DNA from: a virus
Virus record (IMG/VR): IMGVR_UViG_3300043570_000570
Coordinates: 32,001 to 96,000 of that record
Length of the DNA: 64,000 nucleotides
Direction: 5' to 3' (one strand)
The notes under the pieces are model-generated. The model worked only from the letters and a program-made list of their open reading frames with translations. It did no database searches and had not been told where the DNA came from. Positions 1 through 51,107 of this stretch are shown one piece after another; the stretch's first letter is position 1, and the number at the start of each line of letters is the position of its first letter. The position numbers were made by a program, and so were the translations under genes.

Positions 1-2236
1 CTGCTTGTTTTTCTGCAGACTGAGCATCACTTGCTTGAGCCATTTGATTGTTATATACTTTATCAAAAGCATTCAAGTTTATTTGATCTGCTTGAAATTT
101 CATCTGAGCATTGGCTTGATCTGTATTAGCCCTACTCTGCATGTCATAGTTTTCTCCAGTTTCTGAAATTTTTTGCTTAGCATCTAACCCTGCAATATAA
201 ACATCTAAAGGATCTGCTCCTGCTCTTATTGCAGCTGTACCTGAATTATCTACGTTTTGCATCTGACTACGAGTATTATAAGTTTGAGAACGAAGATAAG
301 GAGAATCGACTTCAGGAATACCATAAGCATATTTTTCTTGTGCTCGAGCAAGTCCCATGAGTTCAGGAATAGCTTGATACAAAGGAAATTTACCTGCAGT
401 ATATTGTCCTCTTGGAGCAGTACCTGATTGATTGAATGTTATTTCTCCTGGATCTACTGGAGCATTTTCATACTGATAGTCCATACCATCCTCTCTACTT
501 TTTAATCTTAACATTTCTCCAATAGTAGTATTTCCTATAATTCCATCAGCTTTTGATATAGCTTTTCCTTTATACATATCATCGTACACACCTTGAGGAG
601 TAAGATCAACGTCAGCTAAAACATCTTTAAATTCTGGATTGTCTTTTAAATCTGCTAAATCTAAATAAGATTGTTGGAAAGTAGTACCTTGCTCCGTGCT
701 TAGGGGAGTCATACCTAGTTTCGTTGCTATCTGATTGTATATTTTATTCTTCATCCCTCCTGATGTTCTATCAAGATCTTCTGTTTTAATATCTAGATTA
801 GGATCATTTTTAGCAGCTTCTTTAATTGTGTAAAATTGTTTTTGAGCATTCATAAAGTTATCCATGAATTGATCTTTAGTGATATCTTCATTAGGATTTC
901 TTTCTTTGTATTTAGCATACATTGCATCTTTAACTTTAGCAAACTCTGGACGATTAAAAGTGCTACTTAATTCATCAAAGTTTGTATTGTAGTCTCCAAG
1001 AGTAGTTTTCTTATTAGCCGCAGTTACTTTCATAGGTCTATTGTTTTCTCCCATGACATAGTCTCCTACCTGAATAGAAGGATCTCCTTGTTTTTTAATA
1101 GTAACTCCTGCAGGAACTTTATACTTAACTCCTCCATCTTCCATCTGTAAAGTTTGCGCTTCTTGAACATTTCCCCCATACTGCATTTCTGCAAGTATTT
1201 TATCTTGCACACTTTGAGGAAGTGCCTTGAAGCCTGCATTGTTAATGCTTGCACCATTTCTTGACATTAATTCTCCATTAGAATTTCCATTAAGAGCCTG
1301 TTGATCATTAAACAAACTATCAAGTATTTTCTGGTTACGTTGCATCATAATACCAGCAGTATCTTTATCTACTTGTTTAGCAAAAGGATTATCAAGAGTC
1401 TTCTTATATGATGTGATGTCATAGTTCTTAGCCATTTGAGCAAAGGTCTTTTTAGAACCTTCGGGCTTCAGACTGTTAGAATATACACGAGTTTCATCAG
1501 GAAGGTTTGTAGGTATCCCTCCACGCTCGTGAGAAGGGCCTGTAGCTATTTCTGTTTCAAAGTTTGGAAGTTGGATAAACTCTCCACCCTCAATCTCTAC
1601 GTTATTGCCCCCACCAGAAGAATAACGTTTGTTTATTTGTGCACCCATTTCTGCTGTAATTACATTTTTTCTTCCTGTACCTCCACTACTAGTACGACCA
1701 TACATATAGTTGTAATCGTAAAGAGGCTTAGAGTTTCGTTGTTGTATTGATTGGTTTACTGTACGGTCGTTTTTTAAATCTTGATTATAAGCAAAGGCTG
1801 AGTCTACCGCTAGTAATCCTAATGTAGGCAAATAATTTGGTTCAGTATCTTTTGTATCTTCAGGCTTTGTTTGACCTTCATTTGCTTTAGTACCTGTATT
1901 ACTATAAAGAAAATTAAGAGTTTTAGAAGCATCATTAAATGTTCCAGGCTCATAAGTAGTTCCTTCTGAAGTAATTGTACCTTCAGGCATTAAAGAACTT
2001 CTGTAACTTCCTTTAGGAGCAAAGGGTTTACCTAGTGTATTAGAATTACGTTGAGCAAAGTCTTTTTGTAATACAGCATTTAATTCTTCTGCTGTAGGGA
2101 TATTTAGATTTCCTTCGTTAGTAATTTGTTCTACTTGAGGAGAAACAAGATTATTAGGGGAAGTACTAATACCTTTATTAGGAATATCATCTATTCCTCC
2201 AGTGCCAAATTTTTTGTAAAGCGAGTATCGTAACAT
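1..2236 (-). CDS. Virion cargo/ejected protein (runs off the left edge, >745 aa; not in the ORF track)
   Basis: Hand translation from ATG at 2236: MLRYSLYKKFGTGG...NVEIEGGEFIQLPN...GPSHERGGIPTNLP...MQYGG...MEDGG, open to position 1. The EGGE/GPSHExGG motif is typical of crAss-like internal virion proteins; gene lies downstream of the tail genes. Confidence 0.7.
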   Translation of the reverse strand, partial: MLRYSLYKKFGTGGIDDIPNKGISTSPNNLVSPQVEQITNEGNLNIPTAEELNAVLQKDFAQRNSNTLGKPFAPKGSYRSSLMPEGTITSEGTTYEPGTFNDASKTLNFLYSNTGTKANEGQTKPEDTKDTEPNYLPTLGLLAVDSAFAYNQDLKNDRTVNQSIQQRNSKPLYDYNYMYGRTSSGGTGRKNVITAEMGAQINKRYSSGGGNNVEIEGGEFIQLPNFETEIATGPSHERGGIPTNLPDETRVYSNSLKPEGSKKTFAQMAKNYDITSYKKTLDNPFAKQVDKDTAGIMMQRNQKILDSLFNDQQALNGNSNGELMSRNGASINNAGFKALPQSVQDKILAEMQYGGNVQEAQTLQMEDGGVKYKVPAGVTIKKQGDPSIQVGDYVMGENNRPMKVTAANKKTTLGDYNTNFDELSSTFNRPEFAKVKDAMYAKYKERNPNEDITKDQFMDNFMNAQKQFYTIKEAAKNDPNLDIKTEDLDRTSGGMKNKIYNQIATKLGMTPLSTEQGTTFQQSYLDLADLKDNPEFKDVLADVDLTPQGVYDDMYKGKAISKADGIIGNTTIGEMLRLKSREDGMDYQYENAPVDPGEITFNQSGTAPRGQYTAGKFPLYQAIPELMGLARAQEKYAYGIPEVDSPYLRSQTYNTRSQMQNVDNSGTAAIRAGADPLDVYIAGLDAKQKISETGENYDMQSRANTDQANAQMKFQADQINLNAFDKVYNNQMAQASDAQSAEKQA

Positions 2237-45273: not shown

Positions 45274-46476
45274 TTATTTTACTTTTATCTTAAGTTTAGT
45301 TCCTGTTTCTGGTTCTTCTAGTTTCTCAGCTGTTACTTCAAACTTATGTTCTTCCATAATAGCTGTACATATGTTTAACCCTAGTCCTGTACCTGCCTCT
45401 GTCTGACCTTCTTTCCTCTTATAAGGCTTAGACCACTGTACAAAATCTTCCTGAGACATTCCCCTTCCATTATCTTCAATAACTAAAAAATTCCCTTCAG
45501 CAAAAATACGTACTAACTTAGTGCTAGAGTCGTTATATTTTAAACCGTTTCTTATTAAATTATCAATCGCTGTACAGAACAAAGATTCGTTTACTTCAAT
45601 CTCAGGTAACTCTTCAATAACTACTTGCTTCTCGTAAGAAGTAGAAGATAGGTAGCTGTGTAGAATGTCTTTTAGATTGTGTTGCTGAACCTCTAAGTGA
45701 GCATCTTGCTTAACCAAGTTAGTAAACTCTTTAACTCCGTTATAAACCTTTTGAGTGTGAATCAATCCTTCTGTAATCATTCTTAGCGGAGCATCTATCT
45801 TTAACTCTTTAATCTGCTCTTCAGTCAGTCTTCTTTTTAAGGAAGAAAGTCCCCTAGGAATATAAGTGTTAATTCCTGAGTGCATATCATGTCTTAAAAT
45901 CTTAGCAGCATGTTCCAAATAGGAATTCTTTTTAGCAACCTCTGCCTCAATTCTCTTTTTCTCAGTAATCTCCGTAGCAATTAAAAGAATTTTATAAACC
46001 TCTCCGTAAGGATCTTTAATAGGATTGAAGTTTCCATAAAGCCAAGTATTGCCAAACTCATACTCTCCTTGCTTGAAATAGCCTATTCTTAAATGTGTCC
46101 AGAACTCTAACCAATCTCTCTTAGAAGAGTTGTCTAACTCCCTATGACTTTTAACCTCACCAAATATTCGCTTAAACCTGTCATTCATACTTAACACTTC
46201 TCCATAAGTATCAAACTCTACTAGTAAGTTAGAATTATTAATTGCTTTAAAAGTAGCATCTACACTCTGAAACTTATACCTAGCTCTCCTTACAAACTCT
46301 ATAGCAGGATAAAAGAAAAAAGGTAAAAACCCTACTATACACCAATACCCTACTAAATCCCGCTGGTAACTAGAATCTGTGTACTTGAAAACAATAGCAC
46401 TCTGAAAACTTAAATAAGCCAACATTATCACAGAAGCAATAACAACTGATACCTTAGACCTTATACTTAGTTTCAT
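45274..46476 (-). CDS. Membrane sensor histidine kinase with PAS-like domain
   Basis: Two N-terminal TM; PAS/PAC-like segment (VEFDTYGEV...NFNPIKDPYGEVYKIL..ATEITEKK); H-box LRHDM; N-box IDNLIRNGLKY; G1 EDNGRG; G2 GTGLGL. Confidence 0.9.
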   Translation of the reverse strand: MKLSIRSKVSVVIASVIMLAYLSFQSAIVFKYTDSSYQRDLVGYWCIVGFLPFFFYPAIEFVRRARYKFQSVDATFKAINNSNLLVEFDTYGEVLSMNDRFKRIFGEVKSHRELDNSSKRDWLEFWTHLRIGYFKQGEYEFGNTWLYGNFNPIKDPYGEVYKILLIATEITEKKRIEAEVAKKNSYLEHAAKILRHDMHSGINTYIPRGLSSLKRRLTEEQIKELKIDAPLRMITEGLIHTQKVYNGVKEFTNLVKQDAHLEVQQHNLKDILHSYLSSTSYEKQVVIEELPEIEVNESLFCTAIDNLIRNGLKYNDSSTKLVRIFAEGNFLVIEDNGRGMSQEDFVQWSKPYKRKEGQTEAGTGLGLNICTAIMEEHKFEVTAEKLEEPETGTKLKIKVK

Positions 46477-46552: not shown

Positions 46553-46752
46553 CCCCAAAATTTTTAGACCCCCCATCCCAAAATTTCTCCCAAAATTTTT
46601 TCTAAAATTTTTAGACCCCTAAAATTTTTTATGTTCATAGGAGGGTGGGACCAAAATTTTATACCCCCGTCAACTTGATTATATCTATATGAGGGTGGGG
46701 GACACCAATTTAACATACCCCATCCCAAAATTGGCGCTAGGGGTACCCCCTA
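46553..46752. repeat. CCCAAAATTT / C- and G-run repeat tract at the strand switch
   Basis: Repeated (C)CAAAATTT units, AAAATTTTTAGACCCC twice, GAGGGTGGG twice, palindrome TAGGGGTACCCCCTA. Confidence 0.7.
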
Positions 46753-47096: not shown

Positions 47097-47489
47097 CCCA
47101 CACTTTGTGGGACAAAGGGTAACTTAACTGTTTAACCTTGCCATTTTACTGTGCATTCTTCTCATTTATCTATGAAATGATAGTTTTTTTGGTCTCAGCC
47201 CGGTAAATAACGAGACAAGACTAAAGAATTCTATCATTTTATGGTATATATGTAGTGGTAAATAGTGGGGAATCACTCCCTTCAATCTTCTATTTATCAC
47301 TTAAAAGTGGGTAATTGTGGGGTTGACATGGTACGTTATGAATAATTTGTTGTTCTTATGTTAAATTAGACAACTATTAACCTCTATAACCTCATTACCC
47401 TGTCTTATGCTTTTCTCTTATCTTCTCTTACGTAGTAATCATCATTAGCCTGATGATTCCTTAACTGATTCTAAGCGAACTTTACGCTT

Positions 47490-47551
47490 GGTCGACTATG
47501 CGACCTTAAATAGCCTTTAGGCATAGTGCGTCACTATATGAGTGGGTATGG
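47490..47551 (+). ncRNA. Pistol self-cleaving ribozyme
   Basis: P1 GGUCG/CGACC; loop ACUAUG pairs with CAUAGU (pseudoknot); conserved UUAAAUAG and GCG; P3 UCACU/AGUGG; GU cleavage dinucleotide 47546-47547; P2 CCUU/AUGG has one mismatch. Confidence 0.8.
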
Positions 47552-47706
47552 AAACAATAATTAAAGAGTATTACTTAACTGAAGGAAGTAAGTTAGTAAA
47601 TTATAGCATAGGTACTAATGGTGTTGATTGTTGGTTTGATACTAATGATATTAGACAACACAGATGTTTATCTATTGAAGATTTTGAACTTATTAAGGGG
47701 GCTTAA
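47548..47706 (+). CDS. 52-aa early protein (not in track)
   Basis: METIIKEYYLTEGSKLVNYSIGTNGVDCWFDTNDIRQHRCLSIEDFELIKGA*. Confidence 0.55.
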   Translation: METIIKEYYLTEGSKLVNYSIGTNGVDCWFDTNDIRQHRCLSIEDFELIKGA

Positions 47707-47736
47707 TCGCCTCCTTTAAACTTTAATAAAAAGAAT

Positions 47737-47868
47737 ATGAAAACAATAGAACAAACAATTGATAGTTTAGAACAGCAAGTAAGAGATACATATCCTTCAT
47801 GGAATAATGAAATGATTAGGTCTAAGGCTGTTAGAATGTATTATTTAAATGAAGAGTTGGGAGCTTAG
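47737..47868 (+). CDS. 43-aa early protein (not in track)
   Basis: MKTIEQTIDSLEQQVRDTYPSWNNEMIRSKAVRMYYLNEELGA*; A-rich leader. Confidence 0.6.
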   Translation: MKTIEQTIDSLEQQVRDTYPSWNNEMIRSKAVRMYYLNEELGA

Positions 47869-47894
47869 TCTCCCTTTACTTTAACTAAACAAAT

Positions 47895-48044
47895 ATGAAA
47901 AACTATAGAGTCACCTACTATAATACAGAATATAGCATTAAGTCTATTTCTGTTATGGCTTTTACTCAAGAAGAAGCAAGAACTTATGTATATAGTCACA
48001 TAGAAGATTGTGTTCAAACACTCTCTGCTGAATATATATACTAA
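47895..48044 (+). CDS. 49-aa early protein (not in track)
   Basis: MKNYRVTYYNTEYSIKSISVMAFTQEEARTYVYSHIEDCVQTLSAEYIY*; A-rich leader. Confidence 0.6.
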   Translation: MKNYRVTYYNTEYSIKSISVMAFTQEEARTYVYSHIEDCVQTLSAEYIY

Positions 48045-48049
48045 ACATT

Positions 48050-48151
48050 ATCAAAGAGTAGTAACACTGCATGTAAACTGGTTATCCTTGATTACAGTAT
48101 GCAGACCTTTACATAGTAAATCAAGCTATGTTATGTATTGGACTCTTTGAT
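48050..48151 (+). ncRNA. Three-way-junction RNA with kissing loops (unassigned)
   Basis: AUCAAAGAGU/ACUCUUUGAU; CUGCAU..ACUG/CAGU.AUGCAG; ACAUAG/CUAUGU; loops CUUGAUU and AAUCAAG are complementary. Confidence 0.5.
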
Positions 48152-48296
48152 TACTTTAATGCATCATAACCTACTTCACAAGGGTAGGCAGTTGTAATAA
48201 CAGTATAGAGTCTGGAGAACCAAGCGTAAGCTGGACATAGGTAGTTCTCATGAAGCTGCGGAAGCTACTATTACAACTGAATGCAGAGTGAAGTAA
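48151..48296 (+). ncRNA. Twister self-cleaving ribozyme (P1 type, large P5 insert)
   Basis: P1 UUACUU/AAGUAA; U^AA site 48157/48158; P2 UGCA/UGCA; P4 CCUAC/GUAGG with loop UUCACAAGG; T1 CAC/GUG after conserved GA; P5 CAGUUGUAAUA/UAUUACAACUG; T2 non-canonical. Confidence 0.75.
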
Positions 48297-48393
48297 ACTA
48301 CAAGGTATGGTATATCCTACTAACACGTCTAGAGGACCTTGTAGTTCTTTTATACCTAAGGGTATTATACCAACTAGTATAAACTAAACAGAT

Positions 48394-48606
48394 ATGAAGA
48401 AATTTATAATATTCTCTACGTTAAGTCAAGCAAAGAATTACATTAAGCGTAATCTTCCCACCTATAACCATGATGATGGATGTGGGTGTTGCTATAGTTA
48501 TTCTTATCCTTTAATACAGGGTAAGCGTATTGTCTATGTTAATAGTTATTCTAACATGGGTAATCCAACTACTGAAGTAACTGTCATTGGCAGATACAAA
48601 AGATAA
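48394..48606 (+). CDS. Hypothetical early protein
   Basis: 70 aa, HDDGCGCC. Confidence 0.55.
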   Translation: MKKFIIFSTLSQAKNYIKRNLPTYNHDDGCGCCYSYSYPLIQGKRIVYVNSYSNMGNPTTEVTVIGRYKR

Positions 48607-49824: not shown

Positions 49825-49896
49825 GTCCCTTTCGTCTATTGGTAGGACAGCAGGATTTCATCCTGTTAAAGGTGTGTTCGATTCACCCAGGGGATA
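49825..49896 (+). tRNA. tRNA-Glu (anticodon TTC)
   Basis: Acceptor GTCCCTT/AGGGGAT, D-arm, anticodon arm GCAGG-ATTTCAT-CCTGT, T-loop TTCGATT; one T-stem mismatch; CCA not encoded (CTA). Confidence 0.8.
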
Positions 49897-49911
49897 CTAA
49901 ACTAACTAACT

Positions 49912-51010: not shown

Positions 51011-51107
51011 ATTGCTGAACTCACACTATAGTTTTTCATATTTTCTATATTAAAGCAATCATATCTGTTAGGGTAAAAAGGGGAAGAGTGTGAGCTTCCC
51101 TTTTTTT
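51011..51107 (+). ncRNA. Candidate antisense sRNA hairpin plus terminator
   Basis: 51026-51043 is the exact reverse complement of 47891-47908; terminator GGGAAG-AGUGUGAG-CUUCCC-U7. Confidence 0.5.

Follow-up and report, generated by a model that had tools for sequence, protein, structure and literature searches.

A pistol ribozyme and a divergent twister-class RNA bracket interchangeable small genes in an environmental phage

What becomes of a phage message when different self-cleaving RNAs stand on either side of its genes? The question is raised by a 64,000-nucleotide (nt) stretch of DNA (the window, within which all positions below are numbered) that is part of IMG/VR virus record IMGVR_UViG_3300043570_000570, the 116-kb genome of a freshwater phage, which is about 98% complete. 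Here, a pistol ribozyme and a twister-class RNA on the plus strand enclose three small open reading frames (ORF1 to ORF3). The original prediction, made by a model from the letters alone, was that the phage releases a 611-nt RNA from this segment, possibly as a circle. We find that the three ORFs are present where they were predicted, that both RNAs have the architecture of their families, that the arrangement recurs with differing cargo and that ORF1 is a genuine gene. With a probability that we put at roughly 55%, the window holds a near-scarless self-processing cassette on the phage transcript, which would give a defined linear messenger RNA (mRNA).

The pistol ribozyme and the ORF1 start codon

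The Rfam pistol model RF02679 matches 47490-47551 on the plus strand over its full length (model positions 1-68) with 47.8 bits, above the gathering score of 34.5. It is the only ribozyme found by an Rfam scan of the whole 116-kb genome. Pistol ribozymes cleave at a G-U junction (PMC6154101), and the two linker positions of the model align to G47546-U47547, a G-U linker that is invariant in five relatives. The cut originally proposed at G47546/U47547 agrees with this alignment and stands as a prediction from sequence. The pseudoknot, a described pistol feature (PMC6154101), reads CUAUGC/GCAUAG in the window and covaries as CUGUG/CACAG and UUGAGC/GCUCAA among the five relatives.

A47548-U-G, directly after the predicted cut, opens ORF1. 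The 3' helix strand of the pistol consists of its last four nt, AUGG, and contains this start codon; all five relatives compared end in GGU^AUGG. Known pistols (Weinberg et al. 2015; Harris et al. 2015, PMC4604425; RF02679) resemble this one in full-length match, pseudoknot, G-U linker and association with phages. Unlike them, this subfamily has as its 3' helix strand an invariant AUGG with a start codon, and the terms 'start codon' and 'open reading' are absent from the text of PMC4604425.

Homologues of ORF1 form 60 clusters with 51-94% identity, mostly of 50-54 amino acids (aa), and share 14 invariant residues, including C28, H38 and C40. Judged from this conservation, ORF1 is a real gene under purifying selection. 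The family, which is widespread in metagenomes, has the invariant motif G-x-x-G-V-D-C-W-F...R-x-H-R-C...D (alignment A5) and may be a small metal-binding domain. Neither ORF1 to ORF3 nor the cargo proteins of relatives matched a Pfam or PHROG family.

The twister-class RNA and its family

On the 3' side of the segment, the non-coding stretch 48045-48393 folds better than its shuffles (z = -2.4), and its minimum-free-energy (MFE) fold gives the helices drawn in the original prediction. We searched viral contigs for homologues with a pattern in which only the loops were fixed and the helices were left free. The pattern returned 25 stretches, of which 22 have the 3' strands of P4, P2 and P1, the G-A and the triplet, with compensatory changes visible among them; the other three lack all of the free parts and provide an internal control. 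With the T1 triplet freed as well, 112 contigs matched, and the subfamily is thus found in at least 112 viral contigs; the fetched loci contain about 150 copies of it, frequently arranged in tandem. Models of this RNA (R1) and of the pistol subfamily (R2) were built and run on about 1.7 Mb of fetched loci. The window element, which is in the training set of R1, scores 101.8 bits and agrees with the family consensus throughout the core.

Among 68 aligned non-redundant members, 23-24 of the 31-32 pairs show compensatory changes on both sides, and none of 500 shuffles reached any of the five measures used. When partners were slid by 1-3 columns, pairing fell from 91-94%, a figure inflated by picking members that have P2, P4 and most of P1, to 30-44%; the covariation and the T1 result are independent of that choice. 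P1, P2, P4, P5 and T1 all covary: every P1 and P4 pair and all three T1 pairs are compensatory, and P2 varies as UGCGU/ACGCA in tandem copies. The 3' partner of T1 was left unconstrained in the member search, and the 85 members scored carry CCC/GGG (51), CAC/GUG (21), CCA/UGG (10) or UCC/GGA (2), with one mismatch. In the Rfam register, T2 has standard pairs in 100% of the family (first pair C-G in 40 and U.G in 28, second pair C-G in 68/68); its pairing is the non-canonical YC/GG, with no two-sided covariation. The L4 A-A (A48180-A48181 in the window) is invariant and the G-A (G48286-A48287) is present in at least 90% of alignment A1. Both are kept in all high-scoring copies not selected by the pattern, and copies of this kind also keep U^AA and the T2 C.

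The original prediction had proposed the Rfam twister-P1 model as a check. None of the Rfam twister models (P1, P3, P5, sister) matched the window at E<=10 in searches of 2 kb and of 176 nt, 20 member loci gave no Rfam twister match at gathering, and a minimal 69-nt member (L117) gave no Rfam twister match either. A match was obtained only for a compact relative, a 59-nt element that follows an ORF1 homologue (L190:2167-2225) with the same GC hairpin and UUUUAC-U^AA; it scores 52.1 bits with RF03160 (twister-P1; E=3e-9), below the gathering score of 67.2. In this alignment the cut falls in the same register as the cut proposed at U48157/A48158, which on sequence grounds remains the predicted one. 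The same alignment led us to drop a first T2 register, CA/GG (one pair plus A/G), for the Rfam register YC/GG.

Work on other twisters tells which positions to look for. Only G13, G30, A46 and G48, all in T1 or T2, were intolerant of every substitution in a mutational scan of Osa-1-4 (PMC5113685). A large assay of natural twisters gave as rules a cut at 'NA', 'NC' in the short pseudoknot, complementarity in the long one and the presence of both the general-acid A and the general-base G; P5 stem-loops were well tolerated (PMC11662667). Among annotated twisters, only about 1% are reported to have a P5 (PMC6154101). The subfamily resembles the canonical type-P1 twister (Roth et al. 2014; RF03160; Osa-1-4 4OJI) in its N^A-A cut, in P1, P2 and P4, in a G-A followed by the T1 3' strand, in an L4 made of three T1 nt, A-A and two T2 nt, in the place of the optional P5, 3' of L2, and in having the general-acid A and general-base G in position. 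It differs in a T2 of YC/GG where the canonical one is GC/GC, in having no P3, in a P5 that is obligatory and long with a sequence-conserved base, and in an extra covarying P2 pair that competes with T2.

Some of this counts against the assignment. Every Rfam twister model failed to recognise the subfamily in all members tested. In addition, a fifth P2 pair, Y48164-R48281, covaries (C-G 40, U-A 26, U.G 1; A1 columns 14 and 192). It is U48164-A48281 in the window, and as U/C48164 is also the first T2 nt, the two pairings are mutually exclusive. The inactivity of Osa-1-4 A40C has been attributed, speculatively, to a one-pair extension of P2 that breaks T2 (PMC5113685). The competition between P2 and T2 may be a conformational switch or a departure from canonical twisters. 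Taking both sides together, 48151-48296 is best classed with a divergent twister subfamily, one that fails the Rfam model test and has the structure by which twisters are defined, and it is quite probably catalytic. Because the Rfam twister models matched no tested member of so large a subfamily, twister censuses that rely on them likely undercount twisters in environmental phages.

The long P5 raises the further explanation that the functional product is the 3' fragment, in which twister body, P5 insert and downstream hairpin would form a stable RNA of about 200 nt and the mRNA end would be a by-product. The base of P5 is conserved in sequence (CAGUUGUAAUA/UAUUACAACUG) around an insert of 15-289 nt that is common only within subgroups, tandem arrays with ORF-free spacers are frequent, and the twister is immediately followed, at 48297-48353, by a strongly conserved hairpin that has a U-run. 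Against these points, no target or function could be assigned to the insert, that of the window has no homologue, and minimal members with a 15-nt P5 hairpin exist. We therefore regard this explanation as highly improbable. A search with an exact 22-mer of the P5 insert gave no match. A hammerhead reading of CUCAUGAAG inside P5 was ruled out by eye, as there is no CUGAUGA core, and by Rfam.

At least 25 loci have two to four twisters in tandem on the same strand, for example L066:9833-10870, L119:421-2604, L163:3928-6111, L161:1295-4512, L141:6165-6477 and L174:2421-2685 (L numbers denote loci). Many of their spacers are ORF-free with recurring conserved sequences; these spacers measure 24-400 nt, end in a recurring ...ACACCUAAGCAUGUGUUUAAACUGC or ...GAUAUAAUGCGAAGUGAAACU and look like non-coding RNA modules excised by ribozymes. 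Freshwater-1 RNAs (RF02979, about 84 bits) adjoin transfer RNA (tRNA) genes at L064:444-505 and L075:71-132, on the same strand as twister-class RNAs and 2.5-5 kb downstream of them. One phage contig with a twister-class RNA also has a group I intron match (L077:9067-9294; RF00028, 53.6 bits).

Pistol-to-twister pairs and the proposed cassette

The pistol is present in only 5 of about 118 twister loci, always on the same strand and upstream, 250-610 nt off. A pistol-centred pattern scan that was blind to twisters gave 15 loci. Among the loci with enough downstream sequence, the window and six relatives (L072, L078, L164, L173, L184 and L186) have a pistol-to-twister pair on one strand; the L164 arrangement is the same as that of L180 with L113. 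The twister lies 157-682 nt 3' of the pistol, for predicted excised lengths of 168-693 nt. All seven pairs have an ORF that starts at an AUG one nt past the pistol cut (52, 77, 111, 124, 112, 50 and 193 aa), and in the six relatives this single ORF fills the whole interval. The seven cargo proteins are mutually unrelated by blastp. Whether related phages keep paired ribozymes around variable ORFs had been posed as a check at the outset, and the seven pairs with their seven unrelated ORFs answer that they do. In four of the seven cassettes, the final codons and the stop codon (GGN GCU UAR) lie in a GC hairpin and give a C-terminus 'GA*', and all cassettes end in YUUUACUUU before the twister cut.

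These results suggest how the cassette would work. The pistol stands 5' of the cargo and would be cleaved close to its own 3' end; the type-P1 twister stands 3' of the cargo, with a predicted cut close to its own 5' end. In this arrangement neither ribozyme body would stay with the cargo. The RNA released, 47547-48157, would have one nt ahead of the ORF1 AUG and seven nt of twister P1 at its tail; this P1 remnant would follow the structured element 48050-48150, which would be the 3'-terminal structure of the excised RNA. The product would be a linear message with exact ends, whatever the transcription start or stop. By analogy with the ribozyme classes, its 5' end would be a 5'-OH U-AUG, effectively leaderless, and its 3' end a structure with a 2',3'-cyclic phosphate. 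The benefit would be insulation, in that the cassette and not its neighbours would set translation start and stability of the cargo, a host-independent counterpart to the cutting of polycistronic phage RNA by nucleases. Most likely, self-processing thus serves to fix the translation start and the ends of each cargo. The excision of the 611-nt RNA originally proposed has good comparative support, in that both motifs are of ribozyme class, lie on the same strand and recur in this arrangement; we infer from sequence that both would cleave in vivo, and that stability and translation would be affected.

The ends of ORF1 and ORF2 suggest how three ORFs came to share one interval. Each is a hairpin followed by UUUA(A)ACUUUAA, which corresponds to the P1 5' strand and cut site, and these look like stumps of lost twisters. 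At 47715-47726 the P1 5' strand is degenerate and followed by U-A-A, with the ribozyme body absent; at 47875-47884, P1 5' strand and U-A-A are likewise without a body. The stretch 47859-47884 is identical in 26/26 nt to the end of the L184 cassette, which runs into an intact twister. The simplest relatives have one ORF per cassette, and in the window the loss of two internal twisters would cause three ORFs to be released together.

Contrary to the original prediction, which recognised no described phage system of ribozyme-excised mRNA, hammerheads that flank prophage genes have been reported. Perreault et al. 2011 found hammerheads flanking single genes or short blocks of variable identity in prophages, showed cleavage of polycistronic constructs of about 2 kb and proposed gene-length mRNA processing (PMC3088659). 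The present system is alike in that several same-strand ribozymes bracket genes of varying identity, as in the seven pairs. Unlike those blocks it is heterotypic, with a pistol 5' and a type-P1 twister 3' whose bodies would both be discarded; its 5' cut is predicted one nt before a start codon that lies inside the pistol helix; and the 2011 study dealt with bacteria other than the freshwater Bacteroidota that are the probable hosts here. RNA-virus ribozymes just 5' of ORFs that aid translation initiation (PMC13725137) are also similar, with a ribozyme few nt before the start codon and a cleaved 5' end that was detected in vivo. Those are hammerheads of eukaryotic RNA viruses with a spacing of 7 nt, whereas here a DNA phage has a pistol, a 1-nt spacing and bacterial translation. 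The general concept of ribozyme-flanked phage genes is therefore prior art. What is new is the heterotypic near-scarless geometry, the start codon in the pistol helix, the interchangeable cargo and a large twister subfamily missed by the Rfam twister models in every member tested. The biological roles of these ribozymes in bacteria are 'largely elusive' (review PMC6765202), and the locus with its six relatives makes the question concrete for pistols and twisters through exact predicted RNA ends, a start codon in a helix and swappable cargo. Should both RNAs cleave where predicted, the cassette would offer a natural route to defined leaderless messages that is independent of the host, and possibly an insulator part for Bacteroidota genetics.

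Several observations weigh against a self-processing cassette. In the Rfam register, the helix at the pistol cut has only 2/4 standard pairs in the window; that 3' of the cut in the L072 pistol has three, CAU/AUG. Five pistol loci with enough downstream sequence have no twister there (L179, L181, L182, L187 and L188), the last four being divergent pistols without the AUG. The paired twister of L078 lacks seven nt that comprise the P2 3' strand, the G-A and the T1 3' strand, that of L072 has a mismatched T1, and the window itself has two twister stumps. As far as sequences tell, these decayed twisters, stumps and twister-less loci mean that evolution can do without the 3' ribozyme. Twisters of the subfamily lie after ORFs in 59% of cases compared with 49% at random positions and are not enriched there, and we therefore do not generalise a 3'-end role to the whole subfamily. 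According to the title of Giliberti et al. 2012, as cited in PMC9031893, leaderless mRNA in E. coli needs a 5'-terminal phosphate; a phage kinase was not found, with only a sub-threshold kinase-like match to AAA_33.

Decay and mosaicism are also what would be expected if pistols and twisters had no joint function and were independent modules shuffled within a hypervariable recombining region, one or both copies in the window being possibly inactive relics. The region is mosaic, and relatives with an 80%-identical neighbour gene lack homologous DNA and ribozymes here. As noted above, this pistol is found in only ~5/118 twister loci, copies are often decayed or reduced to stumps, and many twister-to-twister spacers are ORF-free. 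ORF1 homologues elsewhere have ordinary A-rich leaders and other ribozyme combinations, with a twister upstream or downstream, a pistol at another spacing, or no ribozyme (Table 1). Other evidence makes shuffling alone unlikely. The window copies fit the family consensus at all core positions (the 101.8 bits with R1 coming from a training set that includes the window), and the ORF of 7/7 pairs opens exactly at the AUG behind the cut and, in six pairs, takes up the whole interval, which would be hard to achieve by chance. Moreover, a twister follows within 700 nt in about 60% of the closely related pistols whose downstream sequence is long enough.

Comparison with the mosaic relative L063 leaves room for a role at the level of DNA. 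The 190 nt 5' of the pistol are 90% identical between the two and ORF4 is 99% identical, and L063 lacks exactly one block, from the first nt of the pistol to the terminal hairpin of ORF2 before the UUUACUUUAA stump, as a clean indel; the hairpin at 47473-47489 is the left edge of this pistol-ORF1-ORF2 block. Ribozyme and hairpin sequences might thus be mainly cassette boundaries and homology patches for cargo swaps, with RNA cleavage secondary. The identity of the 26-nt hairpin-plus-stump at the ORF2 end with the L184 cassette end, and the hairpin-encoded C-terminus 'GA*' shared by unrelated cargo ORFs, fit this idea. It is nevertheless quite improbable as the main function, given that compensatory changes in the helices and in T1 reveal that selection acts on the structure of the RNA rather than on DNA identity, and that recombination homology leaves the invariant catalytic nt unexplained.

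Finally, the excised RNA might be sealed by a host RtcB-type ligase into a circular polycistronic mRNA, as the original prediction proposed. Tornado, an engineered twister pair plus RtcB in which a designed stem keeps the ends together, would be the engineered counterpart: there as here, the RNA between the ribozymes would have a 5'-OH at one end and a 2',3'-cyclic phosphate at the other. Unlike Tornado, the natural pairs have no conserved stem to hold the ends, and the phage has no gene for an RtcB or Rnl2-type ligase. For circles speak the geometry of a 5' pistol and a 3' twister, which would leave nearly no ribozyme scar, and an 11-bp pairing in the window of 47558-47568 with 48141-48151 (-17.3 kcal/mol, z = -3.2) that could juxtapose the ends; the 3' strand of the closing stem 48051-60/48141-50 may alternatively pair with 47558-47568. 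Both classes leave ends of the kind joined by RtcB (PMC3458531), and RtcB is common in bacteria and present in a Bacteroides control genome. If, as the title cited in PMC9031893 suggests, a 5'-OH leaderless mRNA may translate poorly, a further step becomes plausible.

Other findings speak against circles. The end complementarity is absent from the other six pairs (z -0.8 to +2.0), the phage genome has neither RtcB nor an Rnl2-type ligase, and repeated loss or damage of the 3' ribozyme has left the pistol-AUG-ORF part in place. A search for an Rnl1-type ligase in the phage matched no control genome either and is uninformative. The junction GAUUACUUU|UAUGGAAAC had been read correctly from the window; as a leader for ORF1 it would put U-rich sequence before the AUG, where neighbouring ORFs have A-rich leaders. 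ORF1 homologues elsewhere make do with ordinary leaders and other ribozyme combinations, and Perreault et al. 2011 sought spliced or circular products of ribozyme-flanked prophage genes and report none (PMC3088659). The back-junction pattern TTACTTTTATGGAAACAATAA had six exact matches in metagenome contigs, all of them unrelated: a marine gene for a 77-aa membrane protein and an internal coding stretch. Circularisation finds no support in these tests, and we consider it very improbable. If true, it would mean that freshwater Bacteroidota phages make protein-coding circular RNAs in bacteria through host RtcB, turning a poorly translatable 5'-OH message into an exonuclease-proof circle with the junction as leader.

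Feature positions, neighbouring genes and probable host

Table 1. Positions of the pistol, twister-class RNA, ORFs and hairpins in the window, and ribozyme context of ORF1 homologues in other loci.
Feature	Position	Strand	Basis or remark
Small hairpin AAGCG-AACUUUA-CGCUU	47473..47489	+	abuts pistol 5' side; flank alignment with L063, blastn mosaic map
Pistol self-cleaving ribozyme	47490..47551	+	Rfam RF02679; predicted cut G47546/U47547
ORF1, 52 aa	47548..47706	+	start one nt past predicted pistol cut; stop in GC-hairpin loop
GC hairpin over ORF1 stop, then stump-like UUUAAACUUUAA	47697..47726	+	sequence; motif match 47715-47726
ORF2, 43 aa	47737..47868	+	A-rich leader without Shine-Dalgarno motif
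GC hairpin with last ORF2 codons and stop (GGA GCU UAG), then stump-like UUUACUUUAA	47859..47884	+	terminator-like match 47859-47874
ORF3, 49 aa	47895..48044	+	A-rich leader
Structured non-coding element	48050..48150	+	MFE fold; closing stem AUCAAAGAGU/ACUCUUUGAU abuts twister P1
Predicted twister-class ribozyme, type P1, without P3, long P5	48151..48296	+	family covariation; predicted cut U48157/A48158
Twister P1	48151-56 with 48291-96	+	UUACUU/AAGUAA
Twister cut site (predicted)	U48157^A48158-A48159	+	U^A-A
Twister P2	48160-63(64) with (48281)82-85	+	UGCA/UGCA
Twister T2	U48164-C48165 with G48182-G48183	+	Rfam register
Twister P4	48170-74 with 48184-88	+	CCUAC/GUAGG
Twister L4	48175-83	+	UU-CAC-AA-GG
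Twister T1	CAC 48177-79 with GUG 48288-90	+	pseudoknot
Twister P5	48189-99 with 48269-79	+	11-bp stem around unique 69-nt insert
Twister catalytic nt	G48286, A48158	+	putative general base and putative general acid; both invariant in family
Long hairpin ACUACAAGG...CCUUGUAGU with U-rich run	48297..48353	+	fold, blastn
ORF4, 70 aa	48394..48606	+	first gene 3' of twister
ORF1-homologue context	L192		twister directly upstream
ORF1-homologue context	L195-198		twister ~85 nt downstream
ORF1-homologue context	L193		pistol ~35 nt upstream
ORF1-homologue context	L190		canonical-type twister downstream
ORF1-homologue context	L191, L194		no ribozyme

The last minus-strand genes stop at 46476, and a non-coding stretch leads from there to the small plus-strand ORFs; the genome-wide Rfam scan also found a tRNA-Glu at 49825-49897. 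Leaders of neighbouring ORFs are A-rich, follow the pattern AACUAAACAnAUAUG and lack a Shine-Dalgarno motif. As the leaders lack this motif and 7/9 matches of the twister pattern in genomes are metagenome-assembled genomes of Bacteroidota, the host of the phage is probably a freshwater member of the Bacteroidota.

A blastn search with 47300-48500 gave no match among GenBank phages. A neighbouring gene of 400 aa (45274-46476, minus strand), which matches PHROG families annotated as kinase, was used as an anchor for fetching relatives and brought in 55 loci. Nucleotide homology to the segment was not found in these loci, matches of the R1 and R2 models were absent from every one, and the 12 of them scanned with Rfam had no RNA matches.

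Within the fetched loci, blastn found no homologue of the element 48050-48150. The 57-nt hairpin at 48297-48353 recurs with 88-98% identity in at least eight phage loci that are mosaic in other respects, carriers including L075, L173, L066, L123, L164, L113 and L078. Some copies lie hundreds of nt from the nearest twister, and the hairpin, as modelled, could be a terminator or a separate RNA module. ORF4 has 74-99% nucleotide identity with L063, L164, L113, L071, L078 and L079.

A 36-nt inverted repeat joins 47876-47911 and 51023-51058, with 81% complementarity; its distal arm, 51023-51058, is the antisense of the stump, the leader and the beginning of ORF3 and fits other A-rich ORF starts less well. 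The divergent intergenic region 5' of the plus-strand genes (46554-46732) has several direct repeats with CCCAAAAUUUUU-like units and also holds 46-nt imperfect repeats.

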